DNA from: Bacteroidia bacterium
GTDB lineage: Bacteria; Bacteroidota; Bacteroidia; Bacteroidales; JAPLDU01
DNA: 64,000 nt
Direction: 5' to 3'
Assembly: GCA_026391255.1 (NCBI GenBank)
Contig: JAPLDU010000057.1
Location: 6,973 to 70,972 of the forward strand
Below the pieces are notes generated by a model. It had not been told where the DNA came from. It was given only the letters and a program-made list of their open reading frames with translations, and ran no database searches. The position numbers were made by a program, and so were the translations under genes. Below, piece after piece: positions 838 through 23,841 of this stretch; the first letter of the stretch is position 1; every line of letters begins with the position of its first letter.

Positions 838-920
838 TGTGATAATGTGGTAATGTGGTAATGTGGTAATGTGATATTTAATTTACTCATAACTCATTAC
901 TCATAACTCATAATTATTTT
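838..920 (+). repeat. Dispersed repeat family 3, copy 1 (gtggtaat array plus ttaatttactcataactcat.. array)
   Basis: It starts 1 nt after the sufS stop. It closely matches the reverse complement of 3523-3601. Confidence 0.8.
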
Positions 921-970
921 CTGATACCTGATACTACTTCTAAAAACCTACAGCCTAAACACCTGATAAA
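921..970. repeat. Short word arrays (gatacct words; ctaaaaacct/acagcct words)
   Basis: ctgatacctgatactac ... ctaaaaacctacagcctaaacacctgat. The same words recur at 10169-10204, 14145-14195, 17478-17500 and 23469-23506, and as reverse complements at 13941-13994 and 17629-17682. Confidence 0.7.
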
Positions 971-982
971 ATCAATAATGAA

Positions 983-1432
983 ATGAGCGCCACCGGACAA
1001 TCAATAAAAGATATCGAGGAGGAAATTGTACAGGAGTTTGAAGTATTTGACGACTGGATGGATAAATACAATTACCTGATCGAGCTAAGCAAAGACATGC
1101 CTGCGATTGACAATAAATTCAAAACTGATGAATATCTTATCCGCGGTTGCCAGTCAAAGGTTTGGCTGAATGCCAGCCTTGAAGGTGATAAAGTGATTTT
1201 TACCGCCGACAGCGATGCTATCATCACCAAAGGAATAATTTCATTGCTGATCAGAATATTGTCCCACAAGACTCCGGATGAGATCATCAATACTGAATTG
1301 TCGTTTGTCGACAGAATCGGATTGAAAGAAAACCTTTCACCTACGCGATCGAATGGCTTGCTTTCAATGATAAAACAAATGAAGTTATATGCCCTTGCTT
1401 ATAAAACTAAACTTAATCAAACGAAGCAGTGA
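983..1432 (+). CDS. sufE: Cysteine desulfuration (sulfur acceptor) protein SufE
   Basis: 149 aa with the SufE active-site context RGCQSKVWL and the C-terminal LSPTRSNGL motif. It lies next to sufS. Confidence 0.85.
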   Translation: MSATGQSIKDIEEEIVQEFEVFDDWMDKYNYLIELSKDMPAIDNKFKTDEYLIRGCQSKVWLNASLEGDKVIFTADSDAIITKGIISLLIRILSHKTPDEIINTELSFVDRIGLKENLSPTRSNGLLSMIKQMKLYALAYKTKLNQTKQ

Positions 1433-2079
1433 CTACAGAAGAAGTTCAACCCCGTCGTCTGCTGAGAACCGCCTATCTGCTCGGTATTATTACCGTGATC
1501 TATAATATTGCCGAGGGCTTGATTTCAATAGTTTTCGGAGCATCCGGCGATTCGCTGACCCTGCTTGGTTTTGGGATAGATAGTTTTGTTGAAGTGATCT
1601 CCGGGCTTGGAATTGTTCACATGATCTCAAGGATGAAAAGAGATCAGGAAGTGAGTGTTTGGGATAAAGCTGAAACTCAGGCGCTGTGGATAACAGGGAT
1701 AAGTTTCTTCATTCTTGCCGCAGGCCTTGTAATAAGTTCAATCCTGAAAATCATTCATCATTCTGAACCGACCACAACACTGGCAGGAATTATCATATCG
1801 GTGGTTTCAATATTGGCAATGTGGATACTGATGAGACAGAAAATTAAGGTTGGTAAAGCAATGGGTTCAGAAGCCGTCCTGGCAGATGCCGCCTGTACAC
1901 GTACTTGTTTGTATCTCTCATTTGTTTTGTTTTTTGCCAGTGCCGGGTATGAAATTTTCAGGATACCATATCTTGATATTGCCGGAGCGCTTGCCATTGC
2001 AGGCTTTGCTGTTCATGAAGGCTTTGAAGCAATAGAAAAAGCAAAGTCTGATTCATTGGTTTGCAAGAACGTAAATTAA
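1429..2079 (+). CDS. Polytopic membrane protein resembling a cation-diffusion-facilitator transmembrane domain, with no cytoplasmic domain
   Basis: 216 aa with about 6 hydrophobic segments. The N-terminal NIAEGLISIVFG..SLTLLGFGIDSFVEVISG resembles CDF TM1-2. The GTG start overlaps the sufE TGA stop (GTGA at 1429-1432). Confidence 0.5.
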   Translation: MTTEEVQPRRLLRTAYLLGIITVIYNIAEGLISIVFGASGDSLTLLGFGIDSFVEVISGLGIVHMISRMKRDQEVSVWDKAETQALWITGISFFILAAGLVISSILKIIHHSEPTTTLAGIIISVVSILAMWILMRQKIKVGKAMGSEAVLADAACTRTCLYLSFVLFFASAGYEIFRIPYLDIAGALAIAGFAVHEGFEAIEKAKSDSLVCKNVN

Positions 2080-2164
2080 TTTGAAAATTTGAAAATGTGC
2101 AAATTTGAAAATTAAATCCGTTTCACGGGAAAAAGATTAGCGACAACATATTAGTAAGTTTTGT
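2074..2164 (+). repeat. Dispersed repeat family 1, copy 1 (gaaaatttgaaaatgtgcaaatttgaaaattaaatccgtttcacggga..agattagcgacaacat..taagttt)
   Basis: It overlaps and abuts the stop codon of the 1429..2079 gene. By eye it aligns with 22461-22550 (+) and with the reverse complement of 20950-21040. Confidence 0.85.
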
Positions 2165-2199
2165 TTCCTAACCGTCTATTGTAAATGAAAACATGAAAA

Positions 2200-2523
2200 A
2201 TGGAAAATAATATTGATTTTCTTCAACTCGAAGACGAGATTGTTAAAGTGATTAAAACAATCTATGATCCTGAGATACCAGTCAATATCTATGATCTTGG
2301 GCTGATTTACCAGGTGAATGTGGATTACGACAACAAGGTGGAAATTGTGATGACTCTTACAGCTCCCAATTGCCCGATAGCTGATTCACTTCTTGCCGAG
2401 GTGAATGAAAAAATAGCTGAAATACCCGGTGTTGCCGAGGTAAAGGTTACACTGACCTTTGATCCTCCCTGGAGCAAAGAAATGCTGAGCGAGGATGCAC
2501 AGCTCGAATTGGGATTTATGTAG
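2200..2523 (+). CDS. DUF59/MIP18-family Fe-S cluster assembly protein (SufT-like)
   Basis: 107 aa with the DPEIPVNIYDLGLIY and LTAPNCP motifs typical of DUF59 Fe-S assembly proteins. It sits in a suf context. Confidence 0.8.
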   Translation: MENNIDFLQLEDEIVKVIKTIYDPEIPVNIYDLGLIYQVNVDYDNKVEIVMTLTAPNCPIADSLLAEVNEKIAEIPGVAEVKVTLTFDPPWSKEMLSEDAQLELGFM

Positions 2524-2536
2524 GATTGCCAGATAA

Positions 2537-3382
2537 TCAATAATCACCAAGCGTTTCTTCCAACTGACTCAGGGCTCTGGCAAGTTGTTCGTCGTTGGGC
2601 GCTACTCCGTGCCAGTGGTTGGTTCCCATCATAAAATCAACACCCATTCCCATTTCCGTTTTCATGATCATCATTACCGGCTTTTCATTACCGGTGTGTT
2701 GTTTGGCTATCTTCATGGTTGCCAGGATATCATTCATATCATTGCCGTTCATTTCGAGCACATCCCATCCGAATGAACTCCATTTGGCTCTGATATCTCC
2801 CAGTGGAATGATTTTATCCACTGAACCATCAATCTGCTGGTTGTTGTGATCTATGGTCGCAATCAGGTTATCCACTTTATGAGCAGCAGCAAACATGGCA
2901 GCTTCCCAGATCTGTCCTTCCTGAATTTCCCCGTCGCCATGAAGGCTGTAAATCAATTTATGATCACCGTTAAGCTTTTTGGTCAAAGCGGCGCCAATAG
3001 CAACCGACAATCCCTGTCCAAGAGATCCTGATGACATCCTGATTCCCGGCAGGTGCTCCTGTGTAGTGGGATGACCCTGCAAACGGGAGTTGAGTTTCCT
3101 GAAAGTCGACAATTCACTGACGGGAAAATATCCCGACCGGGCAAGCACACTGTACCAGACAGGAGATATATGGCCGTTGGAAAGAAAAAATATATCCTGG
3201 TCCTTACCATCCATGGTGAAATCAGTTGGGTCATGTTCGAGGATATTAAAATACAAAGCGGTGAGAAAATCGGCACAACCCAGCGATCCGCCCGGATGTC
3301 CTGATCTTGCTCCATTGGTCATTCTCAGAATATCACGCCTCACCTGAGTGGCAGTTCTTATCAGATCATTGGTTGAAAGCAT
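2537..3382 (-). CDS. Transketolase, N-terminal (TPP-binding) subunit of a split transketolase
   Basis: 281 aa with GHPGGSLG, the GDGE..EGQ.WEA TPP-binding motif and a HWHG C-terminal region. Its length matches the split N-subunit. Confidence 0.85.
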   Translation of the reverse strand: MLSTNDLIRTATQVRRDILRMTNGARSGHPGGSLGCADFLTALYFNILEHDPTDFTMDGKDQDIFFLSNGHISPVWYSVLARSGYFPVSELSTFRKLNSRLQGHPTTQEHLPGIRMSSGSLGQGLSVAIGAALTKKLNGDHKLIYSLHGDGEIQEGQIWEAAMFAAAHKVDNLIATIDHNNQQIDGSVDKIIPLGDIRAKWSSFGWDVLEMNGNDMNDILATMKIAKQHTGNEKPVMMIMKTEMGMGVDFMMGTNHWHGVAPNDEQLARALSQLEETLGDY

Positions 3383-3390
3383 ATTTTATT

Positions 3391-3425
3391 AGTTGTAAGT
3401 TGACAGTCGTAAGTTGTAAGTCAGG
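3391..3425. repeat. gtaagtt-word tandem array upstream of the transketolase gene
   Basis: agttgtaagttgacagtcgtaagttgtaagtcagg. Confidence 0.6.
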
Positions 3426-3430
3426 TATCA

Positions 3431-3522
3431 TGATGAGTGATGAGTGATGAGTGATGAGTCGTAGTCACGCATGGTATGCGTGTCAGGTTACAGGTCACAA
3501 GTCACAAGTCACGGGTCACAGG
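3431..3522 (+). repeat. Dispersed repeat family 2, copy 1 (gatgagt array, hairpin cacgcat-ggt-atgcgtg, gtcacaa/g array)
   Basis: It aligns with 17686-17773. It contains a 7-bp stem hairpin at 3466-3482. Confidence 0.8.
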
Positions 3523-3601
3523 AAATAATTATGAGTTATGAGTTATGAATTATGAGTAAATTAATTATCACATTATCACATTATCACATTACCACATTAC
3601 C
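3523..3601 (-). repeat. Dispersed repeat family 3, copy 2 (inverted)
   Basis: The reverse complement reads ggtaatgtggtaatgtgataatgtgataatgtgataattaatttactcataattcataactcataactcataattattt. Confidence 0.8.
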
Positions 3602-3622
3602 AAATTTTCAAATTTTCAAATC
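3601..3622. repeat. aattttca octamer array next to the rseP stop
   Basis: caaattttcaaattttcaaatc; this is the same word as in family 1. Confidence 0.6.
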
Positions 3623-3633
3623 ATTTTTTCACA

Positions 3634-5016
3634 TTATCTATGCATCCAACGGATAATATCGTTGAAATTTGCAAACAACAGCAACGAAAAAAGCAATACC
3701 ATTCCCACAATCTGGGCATATTCAAGGAATTTATCACCGGGTTTGCGGCCGGTAATGATCTCAAAAAGCAGAAAACACACGTGACCTCCATCCAGTGCAG
3801 GAATGGGAAGGATATTCATAAATGCCAGGATCACCGATAGGAAAGCAGTCATATTCCAGAAAACAGCCCAGTTCCATGATTTCGGGAAGATACTGCCAAT
3901 GGTGCCAAATCCTCCCAGTTGTTTGGCCCCTTCGCGGGTAAACACGTACTTCATCTGTTTCACATAGCTGACAAGTGTTTCAACACCAAGACCGATACCG
4001 GCAGGAATAGACGCAAAGAATCCATATGTAATCCGTTTGGTTTCAAAGAATGACCCGGGTTGCCTGTAAGCCACACCGATCTTCCCCAGTGAAGTGACCT
4101 TTAAAGTGAAATGCTGCACTGAATCATTCCTCCTGACTTCAATATTTGCTGATTTGTCCTTCAGCTTATCAAGCTGGGTCATGAATTCATAAGCGGAAGG
4201 AGTGAGTATATTATTGACAGATAATACAATATCATTCTTCTTTAATCCTGCTTCCTTAGCTGGGTTATTGGGTAAGACGCTGTCAATGACAAACGGAAAG
4301 CTGAAATCGACAAGCATGCTTACTTTTCTGGAAATCATTTTCTGGCTGAACCCTGCAGGAACAGGGATTGTGATCTTCTCTCCCTTACGTTCAACCACAA
4401 TGGTTTTCGCATTGTCAATAAGTATATGTGATGAAACATCGATGAAGCGTTCAATTTTAAAAGTATCGACACTCAGAATTTTATCCCCGTTTTTCAGCCC
4501 GATTTCAAGTGCCAGAGAATCACAGACTATTCCATATCTGGCATTTCCGGCAGGTACATATTCTTTTCCCCAGGTGTAAAGAATCATGGAATAAATACCG
4601 AGAGCCAGCAGAAAGTTGACAATTACGCCGCCAAGCATGATGAGCAAACGCTGCCAGGCCGGTTTGAAACGGAATTCCCAGGGTTGAGGCGGTTGTTTCA
4701 TTTGTTCGGTATCGAGAGATTCATCAATCATGCCGGAGATTTTCACATAACCACCTAGTGGAATCCAGCCGATTCCAAACTCAGTTTTCTCATATACGTC
4801 CGGATTATTTTCTTTGTTTTTTGAAAAAAAACTGACTATCCAACGGCCTCCGATATTCCTGAATTTGATGATCGAAAACCAGGCATTGAAAAACATGTAA
4901 AATTTTTCGATCCTTGTTTTGAAAAGCCTTGAAAATGCAAAATGTCCCATTTCATGGAGGATAACCAGTATGGTAAGGCTGAGCAATAATCCTGCTATTT
5001 GAGTGATAATTCCCAT
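3634..5016 (-). CDS. rseP: RIP (site-2) zinc metalloprotease RseP
   Basis: 460 aa with an N-terminal HEMGH zinc motif in a TM helix, PDZ-like central regions and a C-terminal NILPIPALDGG motif. It lies immediately downstream of dxr, a common arrangement. Confidence 0.9.
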   Translation of the reverse strand: MGIITQIAGLLLSLTILVILHEMGHFAFSRLFKTRIEKFYMFFNAWFSIIKFRNIGGRWIVSFFSKNKENNPDVYEKTEFGIGWIPLGGYVKISGMIDESLDTEQMKQPPQPWEFRFKPAWQRLLIMLGGVIVNFLLALGIYSMILYTWGKEYVPAGNARYGIVCDSLALEIGLKNGDKILSVDTFKIERFIDVSSHILIDNAKTIVVERKGEKITIPVPAGFSQKMISRKVSMLVDFSFPFVIDSVLPNNPAKEAGLKKNDIVLSVNNILTPSAYEFMTQLDKLKDKSANIEVRRNDSVQHFTLKVTSLGKIGVAYRQPGSFFETKRITYGFFASIPAGIGLGVETLVSYVKQMKYVFTREGAKQLGGFGTIGSIFPKSWNWAVFWNMTAFLSVILAFMNILPIPALDGGHVCFLLFEIITGRKPGDKFLEYAQIVGMVLLFSLLLFANFNDIIRWMHR

Positions 5017-5022
5017 AATTTC

Positions 5023-6177
5023 TTAGGTTTGGATAAATTCAGAAGTGATAATTCTCGTTTCTTGGTCGGTACTTATATAATCTGATAATGAAGGTTCTGA
5101 AATAAAGTGGATTCTGTTGATTGCTTTTTCAATCATAACGGGCATATCAGTAAAGCGGATACGGTTTTGAAGAAATGCTTTCACAGCCACTTCATTGGCA
5201 GCATTCAATGCACAGGGAATATTTCCGCCCCTGGCAAGCGCTTCAAAAGCCAGGGTCAGATTGCGGAAGACTTCGTAATCAGGTTTCTCAAAACTCAGGT
5301 TCGGGTAATCGGTAAAACTAAAACGCCGGAATGATGATTTAAGACGTTCAGGCCAGGCCAGTGCATACTGAATGGGCAGTTTCATATCCGGAAGACCCAT
5401 CTGTGCTTTCATTGAACCGTCTACAAACTGTACCATGGAATGAATCACTGATTGAGGATGAACGATCACATCGATCTGGTCGGGACTCAGGCCGAACAAC
5501 CACCGAGCTTCAATTACTTCCAGCCCTTTATTCATCATACTTGCAGAATCGATAGTGATTTTCTCGCCCATACTCCAGTTGGGATGGGTCAATGCCTCCC
5601 TGCGGGTTACATTCCTGAGAAATTCCAGGCTTTTTCCACGAAAAGGTCCGCCAGAAGCTGTCAGGTAGATTTTTTCTACCCGACTCATATCTTCACCGGC
5701 CATGCATTGGAAAATAGCCGAATGTTCCGAATCAACAGGGATGATGGATACATTGTTCTCCTGTGCCATGCAGGTAATCAATTCACCGGCAATCACAAGG
5801 GTTTCTTTATTTGCAAGAGCTATATCTTTGCCTGCCTGAATTGCCTTCACAGAAGGCAGAAGGCCTGCATAACCCACGATGGCAATCAGCACCATGTCAA
5901 TATCTGATAAACATGCTGCTTCGGCTACCTGTTCCTCACCGGCCATTACGGTAATACCTAAATATGACAATGCATCAGATACAACCTGGTATTTTTCTTT
6001 ATCTGCAATGACAACTGCTTTCGGGCGATGCTTAACAGCCTGCCTTATAAGTAGTTCTGAATTCCAGTTGGCAGTAAGTACCTCTACCTCAAAATGATCA
6101 GGATGGTTTTCAATCACATTAAGCGCCTGTACACCGATCGAACCGGTGGAACCAAGTATGGCAATGTGTTTCTTCAT
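5023..6177 (-). CDS. dxr: 1-deoxy-D-xylulose-5-phosphate reductoisomerase
   Basis: 384 aa with the GSTGSIG NADPH motif, LANKE, and the DSEHSAIFQC and HPNWSMG motifs. Confidence 0.95.
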   Translation of the reverse strand: MKKHIAILGSTGSIGVQALNVIENHPDHFEVEVLTANWNSELLIRQAVKHRPKAVVIADKEKYQVVSDALSYLGITVMAGEEQVAEAACLSDIDMVLIAIVGYAGLLPSVKAIQAGKDIALANKETLVIAGELITCMAQENNVSIIPVDSEHSAIFQCMAGEDMSRVEKIYLTASGGPFRGKSLEFLRNVTRREALTHPNWSMGEKITIDSASMMNKGLEVIEARWLFGLSPDQIDVIVHPQSVIHSMVQFVDGSMKAQMGLPDMKLPIQYALAWPERLKSSFRRFSFTDYPNLSFEKPDYEVFRNLTLAFEALARGGNIPCALNAANEVAVKAFLQNRIRFTDMPVMIEKAINRIHFISEPSLSDYISTDQETRIITSEFIQT

Positions 6178-6203
6178 CAGGCTGGCAGCTTAATTTAGAA
6201 AGG

Positions 6204-7076
6204 TCAGAAAATAATATATTTCTCGGGGTTAAGCGGTGCCCCGTTATACCAAAGCTCAAAATGAAGATGCGGTCCGGTGGATAATTCCCCTGTATTTCCG
6301 ATGATGGCGATTGGCTCTCCTGCAGTAACATGACTGCCAATCGATTTTAAAAGTTCGGAATTATGTTTATAAACCGATATCAGGTTGTTTCGGTGCTGAA
6401 CCTGTATGATGTACCCAAAATCTATTGTCCATGTGGCATCAATAACTGTTCCGTCAAGAACTGATGTGATCACTGAGTTTTGGGCAGCAACTATATCTGT
6501 ACCGTAATGATTTTTGACCAGATCAAATTTAGCAGTGATCAGTCCTTTCAAGGGAGTAAAGAAGTGAATCCCGCTCAGAGTATTACCTGAACCGGCATTC
6601 TCGGAAGATGAAATATTAAGCGCATCCTCACTTTCAACTCTCTTCCGCAGCATTGAATCATCCTTTGATTTTGTAAATTTGATATTATCGTATTTTTTGG
6701 TGGTATCTTCTTTCTGGTCAATGGATTTGATTTTCTTACCATCCAGTATGTTTTTCAGATTAGTCAAAAATTGGTCCCTCAGGTGAATTTCATACTCCAA
6801 TGAGTCAGTTTTAAACGAATTCCTGATAATCTTTTTTCTCATATTGCCGTCGGGATAACCGGGAATAAATTCACGTAAAGGAGTAAAGGCGATAAGTATG
6901 GTAACAGCGGTGATCAGAATGATTGCGGATAATCCGACAACTACAAATACATTCATTCTTGACAGCCGGAATGAAACTACTTCTTCAAAGGTAGTATCAT
7001 TCAGGATCTTCAGATGGTATTTATCCCTGAATTTGCTGAAAATGCTGGTTTTCTTTATTAACCTTTTTGCTGCCAT
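6204..7076 (-). CDS. M23 family metallopeptidase (peptidoglycan DD-endopeptidase-like) with an N-terminal membrane anchor
   Basis: 290 aa with one N-terminal TM segment and a C-terminal M23 signature (HYGTD...GNTGELSTGPHLHFE). Confidence 0.85.
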   Translation of the reverse strand: MAAKRLIKKTSIFSKFRDKYHLKILNDTTFEEVVSFRLSRMNVFVVVGLSAIILITAVTILIAFTPLREFIPGYPDGNMRKKIIRNSFKTDSLEYEIHLRDQFLTNLKNILDGKKIKSIDQKEDTTKKYDNIKFTKSKDDSMLRKRVESEDALNISSSENAGSGNTLSGIHFFTPLKGLITAKFDLVKNHYGTDIVAAQNSVITSVLDGTVIDATWTIDFGYIIQVQHRNNLISVYKHNSELLKSIGSHVTAGEPIAIIGNTGELSTGPHLHFELWYNGAPLNPEKYIIF

Positions 7077-7204
7077 GTATGAATATACGGATCAGTATCC
7101 GTAAAAAATGCAAAGGTAATCAGTTTTGTAAATATGTGAATAAGTTGGTTCAGGTTTCATGGTTCGACCTATAGTATTTTATTTCTGAAATCTTGACGCG
7201 TTTT

Positions 7205-7370
7205 GGCAAAAAAATCCAAAATACAAATCACAAAAAACAAATAATAAACAATTTTAAAATTTCAAATACCAAACAAACTAATTTGATTTTGTCATTTTGT
7301 TGATTGATATTTATTTGTTATTTGTATTTTGAGATTTGTGATTTCTTGTTTGGTTCTGGCTCGTCCAGGT
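7205..7370. repeat. A/T-rich intergenic block of caaa/tttg words with inverted symmetry (between mpl and the M23 peptidase gene)
   Basis: caaaatacaaatcacaaaaaacaaataa... faces ...ttatttgttatttgtattttgagatttgtgatttcttgtttgg. The words caaaatacaaa and aaatcacaaa recur as reverse complements in shuffled order. Confidence 0.55.
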
Positions 7371-7382
7371 TGGGTTTCATAA

Positions 7383-8741
7383 TCAATTTACTACCTTTTG
7401 AGCCAGTTCAGGAAAATCAATTCCGGAAAAATTGCCTGAGCTCATCAGTAATAAATTGCTGTTGTGCCAGTGGGTTGACAACAGCCGCTCTGTCATTTCA
7501 CCGGGTTCGGTGAATACTTCAATGTTTGAACCGCCAAATGCATGTGCTACCATTTCAGGACTGATTGCAGGCAATCTTTTGTGCTCAATGGTATGCGGGT
7601 CAAAATATACATAAGCAATATCAGCCGGCAGCATAGTACCTGCATATTCTGATAAGAAATTCATATTTAAGCTGCTGAAGGTATGCAGTTCCATGCACGC
7701 CACTAATTTACGTGCGGGAAATTGTTCTTTAACTGCTTTTATTGTCGCCATTAATTTAGATGGGGAATGGGCAAAATCAAGAAAAACACTGGTATGTTCA
7801 TTTTTTGCCAGGAGTTGAAGCCGTTTTGCCGCACCGGCAAAGCTGCAGATTGCCTCGTAAAATTGACCGTCACCAACACCGAGTTCTTTACAAACAAGCC
7901 TGGCGCCGTTTATATTCTGCAGATTATGCTTACCGAAAATTTTCAGCTTGTAAGAATTATTATCAGTTATTAATGAAGTCACCCCGTCTTGTGTAATGGA
8001 TTCATGGGTTGTATAGGGAATAATTTTAAGTCCGGCAGGGGCAGAGCCGGTCAGCATGCCAAGCAATTCATCATTCTGGCAGTAAATCAGGGTGCCGTTT
8101 TTTTCAATCAGGCCGATAAATTTTCTGAACTGTTCAATATAGTTTTCAAAAGTGGGAAATACATTGATATGATCCCATGCTATACCGCTGAGTAATGCCA
8201 CATGTGGTTTGTACAGATGGAACTTTGGCCGCAGGTCGGTAGCGGACGAAAGGTACTCATCACCTTCGAAAACTGCAATGGGCGCTTCTTCGGTGATCCT
8301 GACCATGGTGTCGAAACCTTCAAGTTGTGAACCCACCATATAATCAAAATCCATATGATGGTATCGTAATACATGCATTATCATCGATGTGATAGTAGTT
8401 TTTCCGTGACTTCCGCCAATGACCACCCTTTTTTTATTCCGGCTCTGTTCGTACAGATATTCAGGAAAAGAAAAAATCCTCAGCCCCAGGCCGGTTGCCC
8501 TTTCAAGCTCCGGATTATCTGCACGGGCATGCATTCCCAGAATAACAGCATTTATATCGGGGGTAATCTTTTCAGGATACCAGCCCCATTGCAGAGGCAA
8601 TAATCCAACCTTTGCCAGCCTGCTGCGGGCAGGATCAAAAATTTCATCATCCGAACCGCTTACCTGGTAACCCTTCTGGTGAAGGGCAATAGCAAGGTTA
8701 TGCATCACGGCGCCTCCCATGGCTATCAGGTGTATTCTCAT
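7383..8741 (-). CDS. mpl: UDP-N-acetylmuramate:L-alanyl-gamma-D-glutamyl-meso-diaminopimelate ligase (Mpl, murein peptide recycling)
   Basis: 452 aa of Mur-ligase architecture. It has an N-terminal Rossmann region (IHLIAMGGAVMHNLA) and a GSHGKTT P-loop, and its length and N-terminus fit Mpl/MurC-type ligases. Confidence 0.8.
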   Translation of the reverse strand: MRIHLIAMGGAVMHNLAIALHQKGYQVSGSDDEIFDPARSRLAKVGLLPLQWGWYPEKITPDINAVILGMHARADNPELERATGLGLRIFSFPEYLYEQSRNKKRVVIGGSHGKTTITSMIMHVLRYHHMDFDYMVGSQLEGFDTMVRITEEAPIAVFEGDEYLSSATDLRPKFHLYKPHVALLSGIAWDHINVFPTFENYIEQFRKFIGLIEKNGTLIYCQNDELLGMLTGSAPAGLKIIPYTTHESITQDGVTSLITDNNSYKLKIFGKHNLQNINGARLVCKELGVGDGQFYEAICSFAGAAKRLQLLAKNEHTSVFLDFAHSPSKLMATIKAVKEQFPARKLVACMELHTFSSLNMNFLSEYAGTMLPADIAYVYFDPHTIEHKRLPAISPEMVAHAFGGSNIEVFTEPGEMTERLLSTHWHNSNLLLMSSGNFSGIDFPELAQKVVN

Positions 8742-9019
8742 TGTATTATTCTCAATTTACAAATTACATTAACGGATTTTTCAGAACCGTAATACTAATG
8801 ATATATCAAAATAATTGCAAGCTTGTAAAATATTCCGGTTTTTTTAATCACAACTCCGGATTTTCACATAAATTGCAGAAATTTTAATCCTGATCATTCA
8901 GTCTGTATGGCTGAAGATTTTTGATAAAATTTGACAGGTTGCTGGATATTATATTCTCAGAATACAGATGGTTTGGCTGATAATAGAAACTGTTTTGATT
9001 TTTTAATTTTATATATTTT

Positions 9020-9518: not shown

Positions 9519-9558
9519 ATAAACAAATCAAAAAAGACTTACGACTTATGACTATTGA

Positions 9559-11314: not shown

Positions 11315-11323
11315 TGAAATAAT

Positions 11324-13933: not shown

Positions 13934-13940
13934 TCAATAG

Positions 13941-14195: not shown

Positions 14196-14274
14196 CAGGA
14201 TAACCTGAATAGTCACATATATTTGAATTTCATATATTGGAATTGCTTATTTTTACTGCAAAATTACATAACAC

Positions 14275-14925: not shown

Positions 14926-17379
14926 CTAAAACTGGAGCTGCAGGGATACCCTGAGTCCGAACTTCTGTATTTCAGGATTGTCTAAATAAGACAAACGCCA
15001 TACTGCATCTACCCGGATGATCTTCAGAATATTTTCAATTCCGACCCCGGCTTCATAATAGGGTTTGGTTAACCCATGGAGGTTTGTAGGAAAATCTACT
15101 ATTTTACTGTGGTCATCACTCAAACTGCCGATCAATCCCCTGCCATAAGCTACTTCACGAAGTTTGAGTTTCCTAAGCAATGGAATTTTATTCAGGAAAA
15201 ATCCCATAAAATGGTATTCGACGAAAAGGCTTGCCCATTTATCACTGGCAAATTCATAGTAATTCATCATGTTGAAAGCTAAGGGATCAAATGCAAAGGT
15301 TTCGTTTCCCTCATGCAGCTTGAGCAGGGGATAGGGAACATCACCGAATATCTGTCCTGCATTGATGGCATAGTTAATATAACCAACCGTACCGGTATTA
15401 AAGTAATGAGTAATGTTCAGGTTGAGCCTGGAATATTGATATTTGCTGTTAAATACTCCTTTCAATCCATAAACAATACTGAAATCTATTATCGGGAAAT
15501 CAGAGCCGAGGCTGGTTTGCTCGAATTCCCCGTTCACGATTCTTTCATGCCATGCAAAATGAGTATTGAGCTTGATTTCAGAGGTATTCAGACTTGACAA
15601 ATTGCCGGTTGGGGTATTTAATGGGATCAGAATAGTTGGGAAAAGTTGATCATGGGTCAGTGTGATTTTATTCGAAAAACCCTGCATCCATTCTTTTTCA
15701 TAGGAACCTTGTGCTCTTCTGACGGATGTCATCTTATCAAAAGGCCTGCGTTCTAGAACGGATGACAAGATGTTATCATCAAGAAATGCATTCTGGCTTT
15801 TCCCAAGTTGCTCAATATCGTCCAGGTATAATAATGAAACAGCGCTGCGGGGAGACCGGTTGAAAATATAGGTTGCTCCAAGACCGTATTTAATTTTTTC
15901 ATCTGCGGAACCGTAAGCAATATGCCCTTCAAACATAAGGCTTTTACTGAAATTATCCGATGTCCTTCCACCAAACCTGTAACGGTTACCTTCGGTCTTG
16001 TTATAACTGAACAAGGTGTAATAGGGTCCGATTTCAAATTTGTGAATGGTATAATAACCTGTAACAAAAGCAGTCACAACGTTAGCAAATGTCTTGAAAA
16101 TAGGGACATTCTTCACCGAATCGACCATTTCATAAATACCTTTTTCCTTGTTAGTGAGCTCAAGGTGTCTTGATTTCTGCCAGTATTCATCTGATTTGTC
16201 AAGAGCATCCAGTTTTACAATAATATCTGTTTTTTCAGCAAAAATATTCTTAGGAATAGGTTGATCAACAATAATGTTTTTGTATGATGTGGTCTTTCTT
16301 CCGAATAATCCTTTCGTTTTATTGGTCAGGTTCAGGTCAATAAATAATGTACTCAGGGTTTGAAACCAGGTGCCATTTACACTTTCGTACTCATTTTCGG
16401 CCACAAAATCATGTACATAATTGATATTCACATCATCAGCAAGCCTGATCTTAGACTTTTTAATGGCAAAAGTGGTGTCGTTAACCCAAAAATCGCCTTT
16501 AAATGTGAATTCCTGTTTTCTCCTTGGTTTGAATGAGATTTGGTAACACCATTTATTATCAATGAAAGTACTGTCGACCAGGTAATATTTATAATATAAT
16601 TTGCCGAATGAAGATATTGGCGAAACAAACGGCTGGTCAAATATGGGGATCAGGTTATCATAGATATTTACATCCTGGTACATCTGTCCTGTGAACTGTG
16701 AAATGCTCTCATTCTTGACCCCGGACATTTTGCTGGCTTTTATTACTTCCCTGGTTCCTTTCGGCTCGCCCCTGTAATAAAAATCAGAAAGGGTTTCAGT
16801 AATAAATATCGGCAGGTAGGATTTCCCGGTTACAACATTTGTATCAACATAATTAAATACAAATGCAATCTTTTTAAAAGCTCTGTTTTGTTTAAACTTA
16901 TCATCAATGTTATTAACGTCTACTTCAATTTTATTATAGACTTCGTATTGATATGTTGAAAGATTTTTTTGATTGTTTTTTTCTTTGTTTTCCAGGATTT
17001 TATCGATGATGCGCAATGCGGGATTAACACCCGGTTTTACTGTGATTTCGGATAAATTAAAATTGGATGGCTTCAGTTCGATATCATGATTCTGAAAACT
17101 ATTCTTTTTGACTGCAACGGATTGCTGCTTGTAACCAATGCAGGAGATTGTAAGCGAATCGAAATTTTTTTTTGTCTCAATAAAGTAATTACCATCAAAA
17201 TCAGTAATGGTACCTATTGTGCTTCCTTTAAAATACACTGATACGAATGGAACCGCTTCCTTGGTCTCGGAATCAGTAATCTTACCCCGGATTTTTGTGC
17301 TTTGGGAATAAACCATTCCCGATAATGAAAGGAAAAGCAGCTGTATTAAACAAAATCTATATGTAATGCTAACAGACAT
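14926..17379 (-). CDS. CarboxypepD_reg-like domain plus DUF5686 family protein (predicted outer-membrane beta-barrel-like)
   Basis: 817 aa with a signal peptide and an N-terminal IRGKITDSETKEAVPFVSVYFKGSTIGTITDFDGNYFI carboxypeptidase-regulatory-like fold. A long aromatic-rich body ends in F, as in Bacteroidota DUF5686 proteins. Confidence 0.7.
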   Translation of the reverse strand: MSVSITYRFCLIQLLFLSLSGMVYSQSTKIRGKITDSETKEAVPFVSVYFKGSTIGTITDFDGNYFIETKKNFDSLTISCIGYKQQSVAVKKNSFQNHDIELKPSNFNLSEITVKPGVNPALRIIDKILENKEKNNQKNLSTYQYEVYNKIEVDVNNIDDKFKQNRAFKKIAFVFNYVDTNVVTGKSYLPIFITETLSDFYYRGEPKGTREVIKASKMSGVKNESISQFTGQMYQDVNIYDNLIPIFDQPFVSPISSFGKLYYKYYLVDSTFIDNKWCYQISFKPRRKQEFTFKGDFWVNDTTFAIKKSKIRLADDVNINYVHDFVAENEYESVNGTWFQTLSTLFIDLNLTNKTKGLFGRKTTSYKNIIVDQPIPKNIFAEKTDIIVKLDALDKSDEYWQKSRHLELTNKEKGIYEMVDSVKNVPIFKTFANVVTAFVTGYYTIHKFEIGPYYTLFSYNKTEGNRYRFGGRTSDNFSKSLMFEGHIAYGSADEKIKYGLGATYIFNRSPRSAVSLLYLDDIEQLGKSQNAFLDDNILSSVLERRPFDKMTSVRRAQGSYEKEWMQGFSNKITLTHDQLFPTILIPLNTPTGNLSSLNTSEIKLNTHFAWHERIVNGEFEQTSLGSDFPIIDFSIVYGLKGVFNSKYQYSRLNLNITHYFNTGTVGYINYAINAGQIFGDVPYPLLKLHEGNETFAFDPLAFNMMNYYEFASDKWASLFVEYHFMGFFLNKIPLLRKLKLREVAYGRGLIGSLSDDHSKIVDFPTNLHGLTKPYYEAGVGIENILKIIRVDAVWRLSYLDNPEIQKFGLRVSLQLQF

Positions 17380-17628
17380 TTATTTTTGAAAAGGCACTAA
17401 ATTAGCTGAACCCATTATATTTTAGTACATCTGGCATGATTAAAAAAAAGGATAAAGCTTTACGCTATACCCTTTAAAAACCTAAACCCTAAATTATGAA
17501 AAATTAATTATGTTATTATAAAACAATGTTATAGATATTATGTGAATAAGTGTTTTACCGTTTATATAAACGGGTTTAAACCGAAAATGTTTAGTGTTGC
17601 AGATTTATTACAGGGTATTTATTCAGTA

Positions 17629-17682
17629 AGGCAGGCTATAGGCTATTAGTCCGTAGGTCTTGAATCGGTATCAGGTAACAGG
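17629..17682. repeat. aggct / tatcagg word array next to family 2 copy 2
   Basis: aggcaggctataggctattagtccgtaggtcttgaatcggtatcaggtaacagg. Confidence 0.65.
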
Positions 17683-17685
17683 AGG

Positions 17686-17773
17686 AGTGATGAGTGATGA
17701 ATTATGAGTTATGAGTCGTAATCACGTATGGCATGCGTGTCAGGTGACAGGTCACAAGTCACGGGTCACAGGA
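17686..17773 (+). repeat. Dispersed repeat family 2, copy 2
   Basis: agtgatgagtgatga..gagtcgtaatcacgtatggcatgcgtgtcaggtgacaggtcacaagtcacgggtcacagg. The hairpin is at 17723-17739, and its C-to-T change keeps a G-U-compatible pair. Confidence 0.8.
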
Positions 17774-17819
17774 CAAAATGAGAAAATAGGGTAAGTAATT
17801 GAATTTTATTCATGAGACT

Positions 17820-17851
17820 AAATTTTCAGGAACAAAGTGAACTGAAAATTT
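17820..17851. repeat. Perfect 10-bp inverted repeat (aaattttcag ... ctgaaaattt) with a 12-nt spacer, upstream of valS
   Basis: The arms are 17820-17829 and 17842-17851. GC-rich small hairpins follow, including ccagggcttgccctgg at about 17918-17933. Confidence 0.6.
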
Positions 17852-18041
17852 TAAGTCGAATCATCCCGACAAAGTCGGAGGGTAAATACCCCGTAGCTCT
17901 GCTGCGGAACTTTGGGTCCAGGGCTTGCCCTGGGGTACATACCCGTGATTTTCCTAAACTCCTGGTGGTCTATAGTTTAAACACAATAAATTAAAGCTAA
18001 AAATATGTTAAACAAAAAATAATATGTGTCTTTTATTATAA

Positions 18042-18075
18042 TTGATTTTCCCGGTGTTCATTTTTATTATTTTTG
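18042..18075 (+). promoter_or_regulatory. Candidate Bacteroidota-type promoter for valS (-33-like aTTG, -7 box TAttTTTG)
   Basis: tatttttg at 18068-18075 matches TAnnTTTG. attg at 18041-18044 lies 23 nt upstream. ATG 18108 is about 33 nt downstream of the -7 box. Confidence 0.3.
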
Positions 18076-18107
18076 CAATCTTTTTTGAGAACGATAAAAA
18101 ACAGATA

Positions 18108-20744: not shown

Positions 20745-20890
20745 TCTTCTATCTTATTTACTTTTTCGAAATCTGATTTCAGCTGATCAGTTTTTATATA
20801 CTTTTGTATTTGCAGATTCAATGGGCATTTATTATTAAGATAATTATCCGGGTTTTGCAGACTGAAGAATGTGAAAATGTGATTATACTT

Positions 20891-20936
20891 ATTGCCTAGT
20901 GCCTATTGCCTATTGCCTAGTGCCCAGTGCCTGATT
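20891..20936. repeat. tgcctat heptamer array next to family 1 copy 2
   Basis: attgcctagtgcctattgcctattgcctagtgcccagtgcctgatt. Confidence 0.75.
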
Positions 20937-20949
20937 AGTCGCTTAAGAT

Positions 20950-21040
20950 AGCAAACTTATCAACATGTTGTCGCTAAACATATTCCCGTGAAACGGATTT
21001 TATTTTCAAATTTTCAAATTTGCACATTTTCAAATTAATT
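20950..21040 (-). repeat. Dispersed repeat family 1, copy 2 (inverted), ending 25 nt upstream of the pepP start
   Basis: The reverse complement reads aatttgaaaatgtgcaaatttgaaaatttgaaaataaaatccgtttcacgggaatatgtttagcgacaacatgttgataagtttgct. Confidence 0.85.
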
Positions 21041-21065
21041 TAGTAACTAATTAAATAATTACGAT

Positions 21066-22460
21066 ATGTTTCCGAAAGAATTATACATCAACCGCCGCGA
21101 GCAATTGCGGAAAAAACTGCAGAGTGGAATAGTTTTATTACCGGGTAATCTTGAATCGCCCATGAATTATCCTTCCAATGGATATCACTTCAGACAGGAC
21201 AGTAATTTCCTGTATTTTTTTGGGGTTGATCTTCCCGGGATTGCCGGTATTCTTGATATTGACGAAGGTAAAGACATTCTTTTCGGAAATGATACTGATA
21301 TTGAGGATATTATCTGGATGGGTCCTCAGAAATCCATGAAAGAATTCGGGACCGACAGCGGAGCTTCCAGGGTGGAACCATATTCCGGATTGGCAACATA
21401 TATCGGATCAGCCATTGCCAAAGGAAGAACCATTCAGTATCTTCCTCCATACAGGCCGGAAAATAAAATGATCATGGGCAAATTGTTAGGTATATATCCT
21501 GACCGCATCAGGGATTATTCTTCAGTTCAGCTTATCAGGGCGATTATCAGCCTGAGAGAAATCAAAGACAGGTATGAAATTGAAGATATTGAAAAGTGTG
21601 AGGATGTTGCTTATGAAATGCACACCACTGCCATGAAAATGGCAAGACCCGGCATCCTTGAAAGCGAGATTTCCGGAGTGATTGAGGGTATTGCCCTGAA
21701 ATATGGAGGTATGATTTCTTTCCCGGTGATCTGTTCCATTCGTGGAGAAATACTGCACAATCATAATCATGGCAATCTTCTGAAAGAGGGCGATTTATTA
21801 ATTACTGATGCTGGTGCTGAATCGTCCCTGCACTATGCTTCCGATATTACCCGTACTTTTCCGGTGACAGGTAAATTTACACAGAAACAAAAGGATATTT
21901 ACCAGATTGTGCTGGATGCCAATAATACGGTGACTGCATCTTCAAAGCCTGGCATGACTTACCAGAGCGTTCATTTGCAGGCTGCCAGAGTGATAGCAGG
22001 CGGATTAAAAGACCTTGGGCTGATGAAAGGGGATATTGATGAGGCTGTTGCAGCCGGGGCTCATGCTATGTTTTTCCCACATGGTCTTGGTCACATGATG
22101 GGCCTCGATGTACATGATATGGAAGATATGGGCGAAGATTATGTTGGTTATGATTCTGAAATAAGCCGTATAGACCAGTTTGGAACTGCATACCTGAGGC
22201 TTGGAAAACGATTGAAACCAGGTTTTGTTATTACAAATGAACCAGGTATTTATTTTATTCCCGAGTTAATCAGCCAGTGGAAAAATGATAATAAATTTAG
22301 TCAGTTTATTAATTACCCGGCCGTTGAGCAGTATCTCGGGTTCGGAGGTATCCGGCTTGAAGATGACATTCTGATCACTGAATCGGGCTGCAGGATCCTG
22401 GGCAAAAAGCGGGTGCCGGTTACAATAAATGAAATTGAAAATATAGTGGGCAATATCTGA
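21066..22460 (+). CDS. pepP: Xaa-Pro aminopeptidase (M24B, aminopeptidase P family)
   Basis: 464 aa with M24 metal-ligand motifs (DAGAE...YASDITRT, HGLGHMMGLDVHD, NEPGIY, IRLEDD). Confidence 0.85.
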   Translation: MFPKELYINRREQLRKKLQSGIVLLPGNLESPMNYPSNGYHFRQDSNFLYFFGVDLPGIAGILDIDEGKDILFGNDTDIEDIIWMGPQKSMKEFGTDSGASRVEPYSGLATYIGSAIAKGRTIQYLPPYRPENKMIMGKLLGIYPDRIRDYSSVQLIRAIISLREIKDRYEIEDIEKCEDVAYEMHTTAMKMARPGILESEISGVIEGIALKYGGMISFPVICSIRGEILHNHNHGNLLKEGDLLITDAGAESSLHYASDITRTFPVTGKFTQKQKDIYQIVLDANNTVTASSKPGMTYQSVHLQAARVIAGGLKDLGLMKGDIDEAVAAGAHAMFFPHGLGHMMGLDVHDMEDMGEDYVGYDSEISRIDQFGTAYLRLGKRLKPGFVITNEPGIYFIPELISQWKNDNKFSQFINYPAVEQYLGFGGIRLEDDILITESGCRILGKKRVPVTINEIENIVGNI

Positions 22461-22550
22461 ATTAATTTGAAAATTTGAAAATGTGCAGATTTGAAAATTA
22501 AATCCGTTTTACGGGAATTAGATTAGCGACAACATTTTGGTAAGTTTGCT
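22461..22550 (+). repeat. Dispersed repeat family 1, copy 3, starting 1 nt after the pepP stop
   Basis: attaatttgaaaatttgaaaatgtgcagatttgaaaattaaatccgttttacgggaattagattagcgacaacattttggtaagtttgct. Confidence 0.85.
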
Positions 22551-22568
22551 GTCTGAAGAGACTAGGAA

Positions 22569-23310
22569 ATGATAATTATTCCCGACAATTAAAGTACAAA
22601 AATTTGGAAGGCTATACCAGTTTCGGAAAGGTACCGATAAGGTATCGATCATTGGGCGAGGGAAATACGATTGTTCTTCTGCATGGTTATCTTGAATCCC
22701 TCGAAGTTTGGGGGAAATTCGAATATTTACTGGCAAATCATTTCAGGGTTGTAAGCATTGATTTACCCGGGCATTAACTGGATATTCCCTGGGAGGATAT
22801 GTCAGCCTTGCCTTCCTTGAAAAGTATCCTTCAAGATTATCCGGAATTTGTCTGATGCATTCAAATCCCTGGAGCGACCAACCAGAAAAAAAAGCCAATC
22901 GCGACAGGGAAATCGAACTGGTGAGATCTGGTAAAAAGAATATAATAGCTTCTAATAACATGATCCAGTCTTTCTCCGATACGAATACACAATTGATGAA
23001 AACAGAAGTTGACAGGTGCATTCAGATGGCCGTCTCCACTCCTGATGACGGTATCATTGCTATGCTGGAAGGGATGAAAGTCAGGCCGGATCGAAGTGAA
23101 ACGCTGAAAAAATCAATTTTACCTGTTTTATTGATCTTTGGTAAGTACGATCATTATCTGCCTCTCGATAAAGCTTTGACCATGACTCAATTATTGGGAA
23201 TACCCACTTTTCTTGTCCTTGAAAATTCAGGCCATATGGGGTTTCTTGAAGAATCTGAAATAGCTTCTGACTTTATTATCAAAAATATTCAATCAGTTAC
23301 TTCCTGGTAA
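22569..23310 (+). pseudogene. Alpha/beta-hydrolase pseudogene with an internal deletion, a frameshift and an unclear start
   Basis: The frame with pos mod 3 = 2 reads ...[45 protein letters not shown], then TAA at 22775-77. The frame with pos mod 3 = 1 opens at 22762 and reads ..GYSLGGYVSLAFLEKYPSRLSGICLMHSNPW... through to SGHMGFLEE and the stop at 23310. About 30-40 aa normally separate DLPGHG from the GxSxG elbow, and they are missing here. No clean ATG exists in the N-terminal frame; ATG 22569 is in a third frame. Confidence 0.75.
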
Positions 23311-23325
23311 AACAAGCATCCGGAA

Positions 23326-23354
23326 GATTGGGATTTGAGGATTTGAATATTTGG
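23326..23354. repeat. ggatttga octamer array downstream of the hydrolase pseudogene
   Basis: gattgggatttgaggatttgaatatttgg. Confidence 0.6.
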
Positions 23355-23468
23355 AAAAGAAAATTCAATCAAACATAATTCAGGTTAATCTCTAAACATG
23401 AAAAAGAATATTTTTCATGACTTCTTATCTACAGCCAGTTTAACTGCCAAACGAAATAAAAATACATA

Positions 23469-23506
23469 GACTAAAAACCTAAAAGCCTTTATCCTATCTT
23501 CCTGAT
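23469..23506. repeat. ctaaaa(a)cct word array
   Basis: gactaaaaacctaaaagcctttatcctatcttcctgat. Confidence 0.6.
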
Positions 23507-23841
23507 CAGTTACTTGTTATTATTAACTTTTCAGATTCGACAATTAAAATACATTTAAATTAATCTTCTGTGCTTGTCAGATTCTGTTATTTCTGATTTT
23601 TTTGCTACTTTTGAATGTTGTAAAAACATTAATTAATGGATTGTTTGTAATTACATAATATTCAATTGAATATTAATATTTTTCAAAAATTTATTAATTT
23701 ATTATTAAAAATTTCAAATAAGGTTTGTACTTTTCGACATAATTTTTTATGTTTACTGTTTGTAAAAAAATGAATTATAAGGGATAAGTTTACTTTTATA
23801 TGATATTGATTAATTGCGTTGTTTGCAATAAGGTAGCTTTA

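Follow-up and report, generated by a model that had tools for sequence, protein, structure and literature searches.

The intergenic gaps in the housekeeping half of a 64,000-nucleotide (nt) stretch of DNA from an uncultured Bacteroidia bacterium (GenBank assembly GCA_026391255.1, contig JAPLDU010000057.1, positions 6,973 to 70,972 of the forward strand; the whole stretch is called the window hereafter) hold mosaics of short tandem arrays with units of 7 or 8 nt. The arrays belong to a known repeat class, here at a very high density and in a lineage from which it had not been described, and reveal no new kind of genetic system. On balance we lean towards reading them as non-coding repetitive DNA of the type of the short tandemly repeated repetitive (STRR) sequences and the long simple sequence repeats (SSRs), which would be born by slippage, go unseen by mismatch repair, mutate, be copied in blocks, and be tolerated after stop codons and in operon junctions. 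A preliminary description of this DNA, made from the sequence alone, had held that the arrays fit no known class; hepta- and octanucleotide intergenic arrays had in fact already been described as STRR and long SSRs, as TAACTGA repeats, and in Geobacter metallireducens, and repeats of this type are on record from cyanobacteria, Beggiatoa, Xanthomonas, Geobacter and some Bacteroidetes.

Abundance, period and position of the arrays

Tandem Repeats Finder (TRF) recovered arrays at essentially all of the coordinates at which the preliminary description had placed 7-8-nt tandem repeats. A self-match detector found eight arrays of period 7, four of period 8 and one of period 9, versus approximately none in 20 block shuffles, and no arrays at other periods from 3 to 15 save for a harmonic at 14; counted non-redundantly, the intergenic arrays comprise nine of period 7 and ten of period 8, with one array of period 8-9. 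In the intergenic DNA the self-match rises to 0.367 at lag 7 and to 0.333 at lag 8 from a background of about 0.29, and lags 14, 15 and 21 carry harmonics; in coding DNA a period-3 ripple is all that appears, without any excess at lag 7 or lag 8. Within positions 1-24042 the arrays cover 889 of 4497 intergenic bases (19.8%) versus 0.45% of coding bases, and in shuffled gaps the mean cover is 13.7 bases (0.3%). Both the presence of tandem tracts longer than expected by chance (13 detected arrays versus about none in shuffles) and the confinement to non-coding DNA of units that are not multiples of three, with heptamers prominent, place the arrays in the class of long SSRs with 5-11-nt units. 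The twelve words named in the preliminary description occur 56 times in the 4.5 kb of intergenic DNA, where 6.1 +/- 2.4 occurrences are expected from composition, and at 13 times their density in coding DNA, which disposes of the possibility that they merely reflect base composition; words recur at 2-5 gaps within 24 kb. No Rfam family matched the arrays in a scan of the window, there being no match at gathering score over the 64 kb and nothing credible at E <= 1 in 800-3700 and 12200-18100.

Of the 13 gaps in positions 1-24042 that measure 40 nt or more, 11 contain arrays, in agreement with the earlier impression that nearly every gap contains them, but only the gaps at 838-982, 3383-3633, 9519-9558 and 11252-11323 can be called filled. 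The two purely divergent gaps, 8742-9080 and 12272-12991, are free of arrays and are presumably promoter-only. The distance from stop codon to array is 0-3 nt for the genes of SufS, the CDF transporter and aminopeptidase P (AmpP), close to the 0-2 nt originally claimed as common, but in the other gaps the first array lies 7-118 nt from the stop. The 21 real arrays of the window have 3.2-6.9 units (median 4.4), with none between 2.6 and 3.2, and are 25-55 nt long. Adjoining arrays are joined by linkers that are themselves 7 nt long (ttaattt, attattt), and along 10131-10204 the words change in register. Masking of the detected arrays does not abolish the periodicity: the rest of the intergenic DNA still self-matches in excess at lag 7 (z 3.3) and at lag 14 (z 2.6), which we read as eroded older arrays.

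Four other sequencing runs have yielded contigs in the Logan collection that match the window with 100% identity over 847-2101, 3573-7041, 3573-6606 and 4783-7205. They include complete arrays, and one of them (L353, 847-2101) covers the entire 847-982 mosaic; the gap 3383-3633 is covered by independent contigs in part only. Several ends of these contigs (847, 2101 and 3573, the last shared by L001 and L002) fall within arrays. The identity across four runs, together with the stops inside arrays, implies that the arrays are not the artefact of one assembly and that they are multicopy. The notion of an assembly or binning artefact of this metagenome-assembled genome (MAG) could appeal to the breaking of short-read unitigs within arrays, but besides the four independent assemblies it has against it that the arrays, at no more than 55 nt, are below sequencing-read length and that a like architecture is present in unrelated assemblies; it is effectively refuted.

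Catalogue of arrays and composite blocks

The arrays and composite blocks of the window are given below with their coordinates and strand.

835-965 (+): mosaic of the SufS/SufE gap (TRF, sequence, alignment, contig L353), with a first array TAATGTGG / GTGGTAAT x4.9 (835-873, TRF) that overlaps the SufS TAA stop, then ttaattt, ACTCATA x4.1 (885-913), attattt, CTGATAC x2 and CCTAAAA/CCTACAG units
2074-2178 (+): family A copy 1 (repeat family D2), starting in the last codons and stop of the CDF gene; array AATTTGAA / TTTGAAAA x4.5 at 2078-2113 with the variant unit tgtgcaaa, followed by a non-tandem tail (aaatccgtttcacggg ... ttagcgacaacat ...)
3391-3425 (+; TRF 3391-3421): AGTTGTA/GTAAGTT x4.4 array, 8 nt upstream of the tktN start codon (3382)
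3431-3520 (+): family B copy 1 (D4), with GATGAGT x4 (3431-3459), hairpin CACGCAT-GGT-ATGCGTG (3466-3482) and GTCACAA/G x4-5 (3490-3520)
3507-3606 (-): family C copy 2, inverted (pair I3), with TTATGAG x4 (3529-3557) and ATTATCAC x6.9 (3564-3618)
3601-3622 (-): CAAATTTT x2.6 after family C copy 2, ending 11 nt from the rseP stop
7208-7352 (-): two degenerate, AU-rich heptamer arrays facing each other as an inverted pair, with arms at 7217-7267 and 7281-7331 (pair I5, TRF)
9536-9563 (+): small GACTTAC/T x3 array in a 40-nt convergent gap
10131-10204 (+): period-7 run, tgtatca tgtatca cttatca cgttgtc, then CTGATAC x5 (TRF: CCTGATA x5.1, 10167-10202)
11262-11314 (+): AACTTTAT(G/A) x6, period 8-9, filling the gap between the ornithine carbamoyltransferase (OTCase) and amino-acid kinase genes
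13941-14195 (+): foldback-like gap, with AGGCT-type arrays (13941-13994) reverse-complementary to CCTAAAAG/CCTACAG arrays (14145-14195; D5, I23), and between them an inner hairpin and a GAAATCT array (14074-14101); TRF arrays 13962-13988 and 14154-14187
17629-17660 (+): AGGCT-type units upstream of family B copy 2
17688-17775 (+): family B copy 2 (D4), 88% identical to 3431-3518; TRF 17685-17716 and 17741-17772
Within 20863-21061: tgaagaatg units, then TGCCTAT/G x5.7 (20890-20936; TRF TGCCTAG, 20893-20932)
20936-21043 (-): family A copy 3 (I1, I2), ending 22 nt before the AmpP start; TRF 21002-21036
22460-22564 (+): family A copy 2 (D2, I1), beginning at the AmpP TGA stop; TRF 22464-22499
23326-23354 (+): GGATTTGA x2.8; TRF 23332-23353
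23469-23506 (+): weak CCTAAAAG-type copy (D5)

Two entries differ from the preliminary description: its tttgaaaa sites stand, but at 3601-3622 and 21003-21040 the word lies in reverse complement and not on the same strand, and the actcata array placed at 10131-10145 proves to be a single actcat unit followed by tgtatca units. The repeat families and alignments uphold its view that the words are modular and are combined variously and in both orientations. Three composite families, A, B and C, consist of blocks of about 90-108 nt whose copies, two or three per family, are 84-88% identical, share their unit variants and occur in both orientations. Family A comprises a TTTGAAAA array, with the odd unit tgtgcaaa in all copies, and a 70-nt non-repetitive tail; alignment of its copies 1-3 gives AATTAATTTG as the left end of each and nearly coincident right ends, two copies start at a stop codon or within it, and there is one permutation of unit order between copies. 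Copies 20936-21043 and 22457-22564 form 108-nt inverted repeats around the AmpP gene (I1). In family B a GATGAGT array leads to a 7-bp palindrome with GTAG or GTAA in front of it, and a GTCACAA array follows. Family C has one copy at 836-935 and a second, in reverse complement, at 3507-3606; a GGTAATGT array is joined by a linker to one of ACTCATA, and from there on the two copies run into different arrays. These copies constitute inverted repeats of about 100 nt around the sufE-CDF-FeS-tktN block (I3). Gene order is unchanged in a sister lineage (L006, below), so that no inversion is evident at either inverted pair. When the three families were aligned with their flanks they showed no terminal inverted repeats and no target-site duplications, in which they differ from miniature inverted-repeat transposable elements. 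In about 350 fetched loci the only matches to the composites were to their arrays, the family A pattern did not occur in the genome or metagenome collections searched (which do not include the source MAG), and the whole 13934-14274 gap has no second copy in the window or in any fetched locus.

Genomic setting and relatives

Positions 1-24042 encode housekeeping proteins: SufS, SufE, the CDF transporter, an Fe-S assembly protein, the N-terminal subunit of transketolase (tktN), RseP, Dxr, an M23 peptidase, a Mur ligase, an ornithine/aspartate carbamoyltransferase, an amino-acid kinase, Upp, a DUF5686 protein, ValS and AmpP. The SprB repeats found further along the window, the DUF5686 protein and the nearest valyl-tRNA synthetases (ValRS), which come from Bacteroidales, identify the host as a member of the Bacteroidia and not a (heterocystous) cyanobacterium. 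RseP is identical to the protein MCX6257812.1 of a Bacteroidia bacterium, and its nearest relatives share 76% identity with it. Among species representatives the nearest ValRS reach 62-66% identity at full length, and three partial matches, on short contigs, reach 72-75%; the closest of them come mostly from uncultured Bacteroidales.

Comparison of orthologous gaps, which the preliminary description had proposed, reveals gain and loss of arrays between lineages. Two lineages stand equally distant from the window (76% RseP identity), one without arrays (L004/L005) and one with them (L006-L011). In the former, M23-dxr-rseP-tkt spacing is 11-24 nt and there is no array; the latter keeps synteny with the window through the suf operon, with gaps of about 200 nt, and its arrays use the words AAAATTC, AGTTTAC-AGTCCTC, TTCTCAT and TGCCCCA at junctions partly different from those of the window. 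The rseP/tkt junction, 251 nt long in the window, measures 209 nt in L006 and 11 nt in L004. At the dxr/rseP junction the window has 6 nt and L004 has 12; the L006 gap (9787-10000) carries a CACCAAAA array enclosed by a long inverted repeat (ACTGCTCCGAAAAGT ... ACTTTTCGGAGTGGACT). The lengths of the protein C-termini are equal in the window, L004 and L006 lineages, which implies that the arrays begin right after native stop codons. The six strains of the L006 lineage (L006-L011) differ from one another by 0.01-0.06%.

Among relatives found through ValRS, L012 has four arrays, which set in 5 nt past the stop of valS; in 17 kb of L014 (Bacteroidales UBA4073) the self-match detector counted nine heptamer arrays, and at both contig ends arrays lie within about 20-65 nt; one array is present in L013, and none in L015 (Roseimarinus) or most other loci of this set. 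L092 and L093 are essentially array-free, while a more distant Bacteroidota MAG (L094) and two Bacillota MAGs carry arrays. In L094, exact 141-nt tandem duplications (99-100% identity) were also noticed inside the M23 and dxr genes (7936-8218 and 9586-9871), which may be assembly artefacts. L006, L012, L014 and L094 thus share with the window the type of mosaic, but their words differ and so do the gaps they occupy. This pattern among the relatives indicates a patchy, lineage-specific trait that evolves fast in word and position. The equally distant sister lineages with and without arrays thereby offer a natural experiment on linked gene content and on differences in polymerase and repair.

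Generality and vocabulary

Unrelated loci totalling 1.32 Mb hold 69 arrays, of which 32, more than at any other period, have period 7. A metagenome scan with three tandem copies of AAAATTC matched at least 120 contigs; the matches listed span a GC content of 22-68%, 61% of them hold further period-7/8 arrays, 23 hold four or more, and their other 203 arrays use 142 words, with weak sharing. In viral contigs, three tandem copies gave 64 matches for AAAATTC, 39 for the permuted control AATACTA and 22 for ACTCATA, all three of which far exceed chance for a 21-mer. Such arrays of a control heptamer imply that any heptamer can form arrays and argue against a privileged vocabulary. We accordingly reject a vocabulary shared across phyla as evidence for a conserved, specific binder, given the 39 control matches against 64 and the weak sharing of words. 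Nor does the suggested system of modular spacers, if taken as a designed one, find support here: permuted control arrays are about as frequent, and neither words nor positions are conserved in relatives.

Two further sequences have arrays at most of their junctions. A predicted viral contig (L335, 1-12692; IMG/VR UViG_3300035392_000147) carries them at nearly every junction of small co-directional open reading frames (ORFs), all from one word family (ACTCATA, ATTCATA, AATTATG). A metagenome contig with 63% GC (L210, 1-14598) has AT-rich heptamer arrays in most gaps, often two per gap; at 11565-11646 a reverse-complement pair, AAATGCA / TTTGCAT, directly follows a stop codon.

RNA structure and sequence signals

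Three array-bearing gaps fold better than their shuffles. Two do so as minus-strand RNA, namely 3383-3633 (z -2.6) and 7185-7382 (z -3.5, more exactly -3.47, with 0 of 200 shuffles as stable), and the third is 13934-14274 (z -6.1, more exactly -6.06), in which complementary arrays supply inverted arms of about 45 nt. The minus-strand RNA of 7185-7382 forms a long AU-rich array hairpin followed by GGAUUUUUUUGCC (U7), downstream of the Mur ligase gene. The remaining array-bearing gaps, of about 12 in all, have z-scores from +0.25 to -1.9, and a general role in RNA structure is therefore rejected. Intrinsic terminators, defined by a G+C-rich hairpin and a U tract, number 11 in the scan versus 15.8 expected, most of them inside genes; the array hairpin with U7 at 7185-7382 is the exception. 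Sigma-70 consensus promoters are not enriched in a scan that does not model Bacteroidetes promoters, and no tRNA genes were found. A function in providing stops in three frames is likewise rejected: the 49 array words hold 23 stop codons per strand versus 22 in letter shuffles, with a marginal excess (38 vs 33 expected, p 0.03) when either strand is counted. Phase variation at contingency loci is rejected because the arrays are intergenic, lie beside housekeeping genes and are stable.

Other features of the window

Positions 24043-64000 consist of three giant SprB-repeat ORFs of 1123, 4334 and more than 7900 amino acids (the last open at the window end), which are made of 198-nt repeats. The absence of arrays there is uninformative, because this part has hardly any intergenic DNA. 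An 87-nt gap among these ORFs (40068-40154) has a G+C-rich hairpin, GATCGGGTGGCCGAAAGGCCATCCGATC, and no array. The array-free divergent gap at 12272-12991 harbors a G+C-rich, strongly structured non-coding stretch (12380-12800) with a long hairpin at about 12474-12590; the minimum free energy z-scores of 12272-12600 are -5.1 and -4.4 on the two strands, and the stretch has no Rfam match and no copy in any fetched locus. Upstream of valS, 17850-17960 is G+C-rich, has several small palindromes (e.g. CCAGGGCTTGCCCTGG) and is unique among the fetched sequences. An alpha/beta-hydrolase gene at 22600-23310 looks disrupted, as the ORF at 22855-23310 is not in frame with the N-terminal region at about 22670-22790, which carries the HG motif.

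Origin of the arrays and alternative explanations

We propose that the 7-8-nt units are amplified by strand slippage during replication or repair. MutS-type mismatch repair recognises loops of more than about 4 nt poorly, and the arrays would persist because loops of this size are poorly seen. Point mutation would then decay the arrays while new variants amplify, so that fresh arrays come to lie in mosaics with eroded period-7 sequence. From time to time a whole composite block, about 90-110 nt of array and linker with a further array or a tail, would be copied to other gaps in either orientation, most likely through ectopic recombination or gene conversion seeded by shared arrays, or else through mobilisation in trans. 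Such copies, being nearly neutral, would survive only where they are harmless, directly after stops and in intercistronic gaps, and compact junctions would become inflated there. Any function would be secondary and local: the minority of inverted pairs that can form long hairpins may act as 3' stem-loops or terminators. In favor of the proposal are the confinement of the signal to periods 7 and 8 (with one array of period 9) and to intergenic DNA, the residual periodicity, the change of words in register, the composite copies, the gain and loss between relatives, the freedom from arrays of the purely divergent gaps, the lack of a special vocabulary, and the published attribution of heptamer SSRs to polymerase slippage. 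This proposal comes close to the other suggestion of the preliminary description, that the arrays are the footprint of a mechanism that generates them.

Several observations sit poorly with an origin by slippage and near-neutral spread. The order of unit variants is kept across copies diverged by 12-16%, and among the six strains of the L006 lineage there is no copy-number polymorphism and there are no indels, so that the arrays look static and not slippage-prone. Simple slippage predicts a long tail of array sizes and not the narrow range of 3.2-6.9 units, and the slippage account leaves the unit size of 7-8 nt unexplained. The coincident ends of the three family A copies fit a discrete inserted unit better than gene conversion with variable ends. 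Adjoining arrays are reverse-complementary in 27% of pairs versus 14% of random pairs (in a sample biased by its collection), and both this and the three significantly folded gaps hint at selection for structure. The use of AT-rich words by the 63% GC contig is a further such observation. Narrow size, stability, family A ends and inverted neighbours do not follow from simple slippage, and two alternatives, a cis-acting function and spread by mobile elements, retain some weight.

It is conceivable, though unlikely, that the arrays are functional cis-elements, serving either as multivalent platforms for a nucleoid-associated or RNA-binding protein or as RNA modules that terminate or insulate transcription, stabilise the mRNA upstream or tune translation of the following cistron; an IHF/HU-type protein has been proposed for the Geobacter elements (PMC2700814), and an S1, Csp or CsrA-type protein for the TAACTGA repeats (PMC4679880). 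Location at gene junctions, often 0-15 nt past stops, would be expected of such elements, as would the narrow size of about 4-5 units, which resembles that of the four-/five-unit elements of G. metallireducens (PMC2700814), the enrichment of inverted array pairs, and the folding of 7185-7382 (minus, with U7), 13934-14274 and 3383-3633 (minus) in array-bearing gaps that have no canonical intrinsic terminators. The phage-like contig L335, with one word family at nearly all junctions, and the change of recO promoter activity on heptamer deletion in Nostoc constructs (bioRxiv 10.1101/2022.06.06.494920) also speak for a function of this kind. However, the use of at least 12 unrelated words in 24 kb, and of other words in relatives, argues against one sequence-specific binder, as does the similar frequency of permuted control arrays; neither position nor presence is conserved at orthologous junctions, which in the sister lineage measure 11-25 nt; most gaps are not structured beyond shuffles; the stop-codon content of the words is not clearly enriched; and orientation relative to the flanking genes is inconsistent, family A occurring both ways and family B upstream of different gene types. 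Alternatively, families A, B and C and the foldback-like 13934-14274 gap might be small non-autonomous mobile elements, with tandem repeats as their bodies or arms, mobilised in trans, the arrays being spread mainly by transposition, by analogy with repetitive extragenic palindromic (REP) sequences and bacterial interspersed mosaic elements (BIMEs) together with REP-associated tyrosine transposases (RAYTs), with palindrome elements derived from IS200/IS605, or with foldback elements; we think this quite unlikely. The 90-108-nt copies with 84-88% identity, lying in both orientations in unrelated gaps, have the look of such elements, and the common left end and roughly common right end in family A, the central 7-bp palindrome of family B after GTAG or GTAA, the inverted arms of about 45 nt at 13934-14274 and the breaking of short-read assemblies in arrays, as for multicopy sequence, would fit mobility too. 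A target preference would account for two family A copies that start exactly at a stop codon or within one. Yet the three families lack terminal inverted repeats and target-site duplications, no transposase or RAYT gene lies within the 64-kb window, and there are only two or three copies per family; family C shares two modules and then differs in each copy, a mosaic end point more like that of recombination; and neither the composites, across about 350 loci, nor the family A pattern, in collections without the source MAG, has a counterpart elsewhere.

A further reading, which we hold to be decidedly improbable, makes the arrays the product or target of an unrecognised but widespread process that would install blocks of about 30 nt (4-5 units of 7-8 nt) at junctions in several phyla and phages; in this reading the blocks, often inverted pairs, would act as structural or protein-binding units or as arms of foldback-type elements. 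It keeps a place among the alternatives because of the narrow size and stability of the arrays, the family A ends, the inverted neighbours, the AT-rich words of L210 and the junction arrays of L335. We nonetheless favor slippage-born, near-neutral repetitive DNA over all of these. Whatever their origin, the arrays have practical consequences, as they break short-read assemblies at gene junctions and could pass for regulatory motifs or mobile elements in annotation.

Comparison with known repeat classes

Clustered regularly interspaced short palindromic repeat (CRISPR) arrays, in which repeats of 23-47 nt alternate with unique spacers of similar length, are ruled out as a class, as the units here are 7-8 nt, contiguous and without spacers. 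The REP units of enterobacteria are imperfect palindromes of about 35 nt (20-40 nt) with a GTAG end that are linked to RAYT transposases. The window resembles REP/BIME sequences by analogy of layout only, in having short modules of varied order and orientation that are intergenic and mostly lie after gene 3' ends; unlike them, it has 7-8-nt direct tandem repeats as units, with a small palindrome in family B only, and with neither a RAYT nor a transposase gene in the 64 kb the arrays do not belong to that class.

A further comparison is with the multicopy intergenic elements of G. metallireducens, which consist of four tandem octanucleotides or five tandem heptanucleotides, are often paired on opposite strands and are not present in G. 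sulfurreducens (Aklujkar et al. 2009, PMC2700814). Both sets have 4-5 tandem units of 7-8 nt between housekeeping genes, include some inverted pairs and are missing in a sister lineage (PMC2700814). The Geobacter elements, however, use single conserved words, GTTGCTYN / MTYCTGA, in 16-49 copies and were read as a regulator-binding site (PMC2700814), whereas the window has many concatenated words, with 2-5 copies each in 24 kb, and no sequence similarity to them. TAACTGA repeats are known from Beggiatoaceae, cyanobacteria and five Bacteroidetes, and the same study noted mixed heptamers in Microcystis and Bacteroidetes and "larger assemblages of heptamer repeats" in the latter (MacGregor 2015, PMC4679880). 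These repeats are missing from close relatives with shorter gaps, and contigs end within them (PMC4679880); the window shares with them, and with the assemblages of Gramella, Aequorivita and Elizabethkingia, intergenic heptamers that are missing in relatives with the same gene neighborhood and shorter gaps (PMC4679880). In the marine Beggiatoaceae one word dominates, in forward orientation just upstream of start codons (PMC4679880), in contrast to the many words of the window with their bias towards the upstream stop. TAACTGA itself has no two-copy tandem match in the window at <=1 mismatch, and TTTTGAA arrays are likewise not present there.

Heptamer arrays in intergenic DNA have been noted since 1990, when heptanucleotide tandem repeats in non-coding DNA of Calothrix were described as STRR (Mazel 1990, as cited in PMC4692102), although PMC4692102 found no detailed literature on heptameric repeats as of 2015. 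In Nostoc, contiguous TTTTGAA heptamers lie near start codons, and it was there that deletion altered recO promoter activity in constructs (bioRxiv 10.1101/2022.06.06.494920). The window is like the STRR and contiguous heptamers of Calothrix PCC 7601, Nostoc/Anabaena and Microcystis in having several mixed words near start or stop codons (PMC4679880; bioRxiv 10.1101/2022.06.06.494920), and AAAATTC, the word of the sister lineage, is the Nostoc TTTTGAA read on the other strand. It differs in its host, an uncultured member of the Bacteroidia, and in having 8-nt as well as 7-nt units, about half each; cyanobacterial arrays can also be far longer, for example 26 units of GGGGATT (PMC4692102). Heptamers are, in the account of Mrazek (2007) given in PMC4692102, over-represented among prokaryotic SSRs, intergenic and attributed to polymerase slippage. 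With the long SSRs of 5-11-nt units, as these are summarized in PMC4679880 and PMC4692102, the window shares longer-than-chance intergenic tracts, dominance of heptamers, a scattered phylogeny and slippage as the proposed origin; relative to the same summaries it stands apart in that octamers are as common as heptamers and that the arrays are short (4-5 units), packed into mosaics and duplicated between gaps as composites. Within this class the clade of the window, of uncultured Bacteroidales, is among the densest carriers, with about one fifth of its intergenic DNA made up of arrays and junctions expanded from about 10 to 250 nt.

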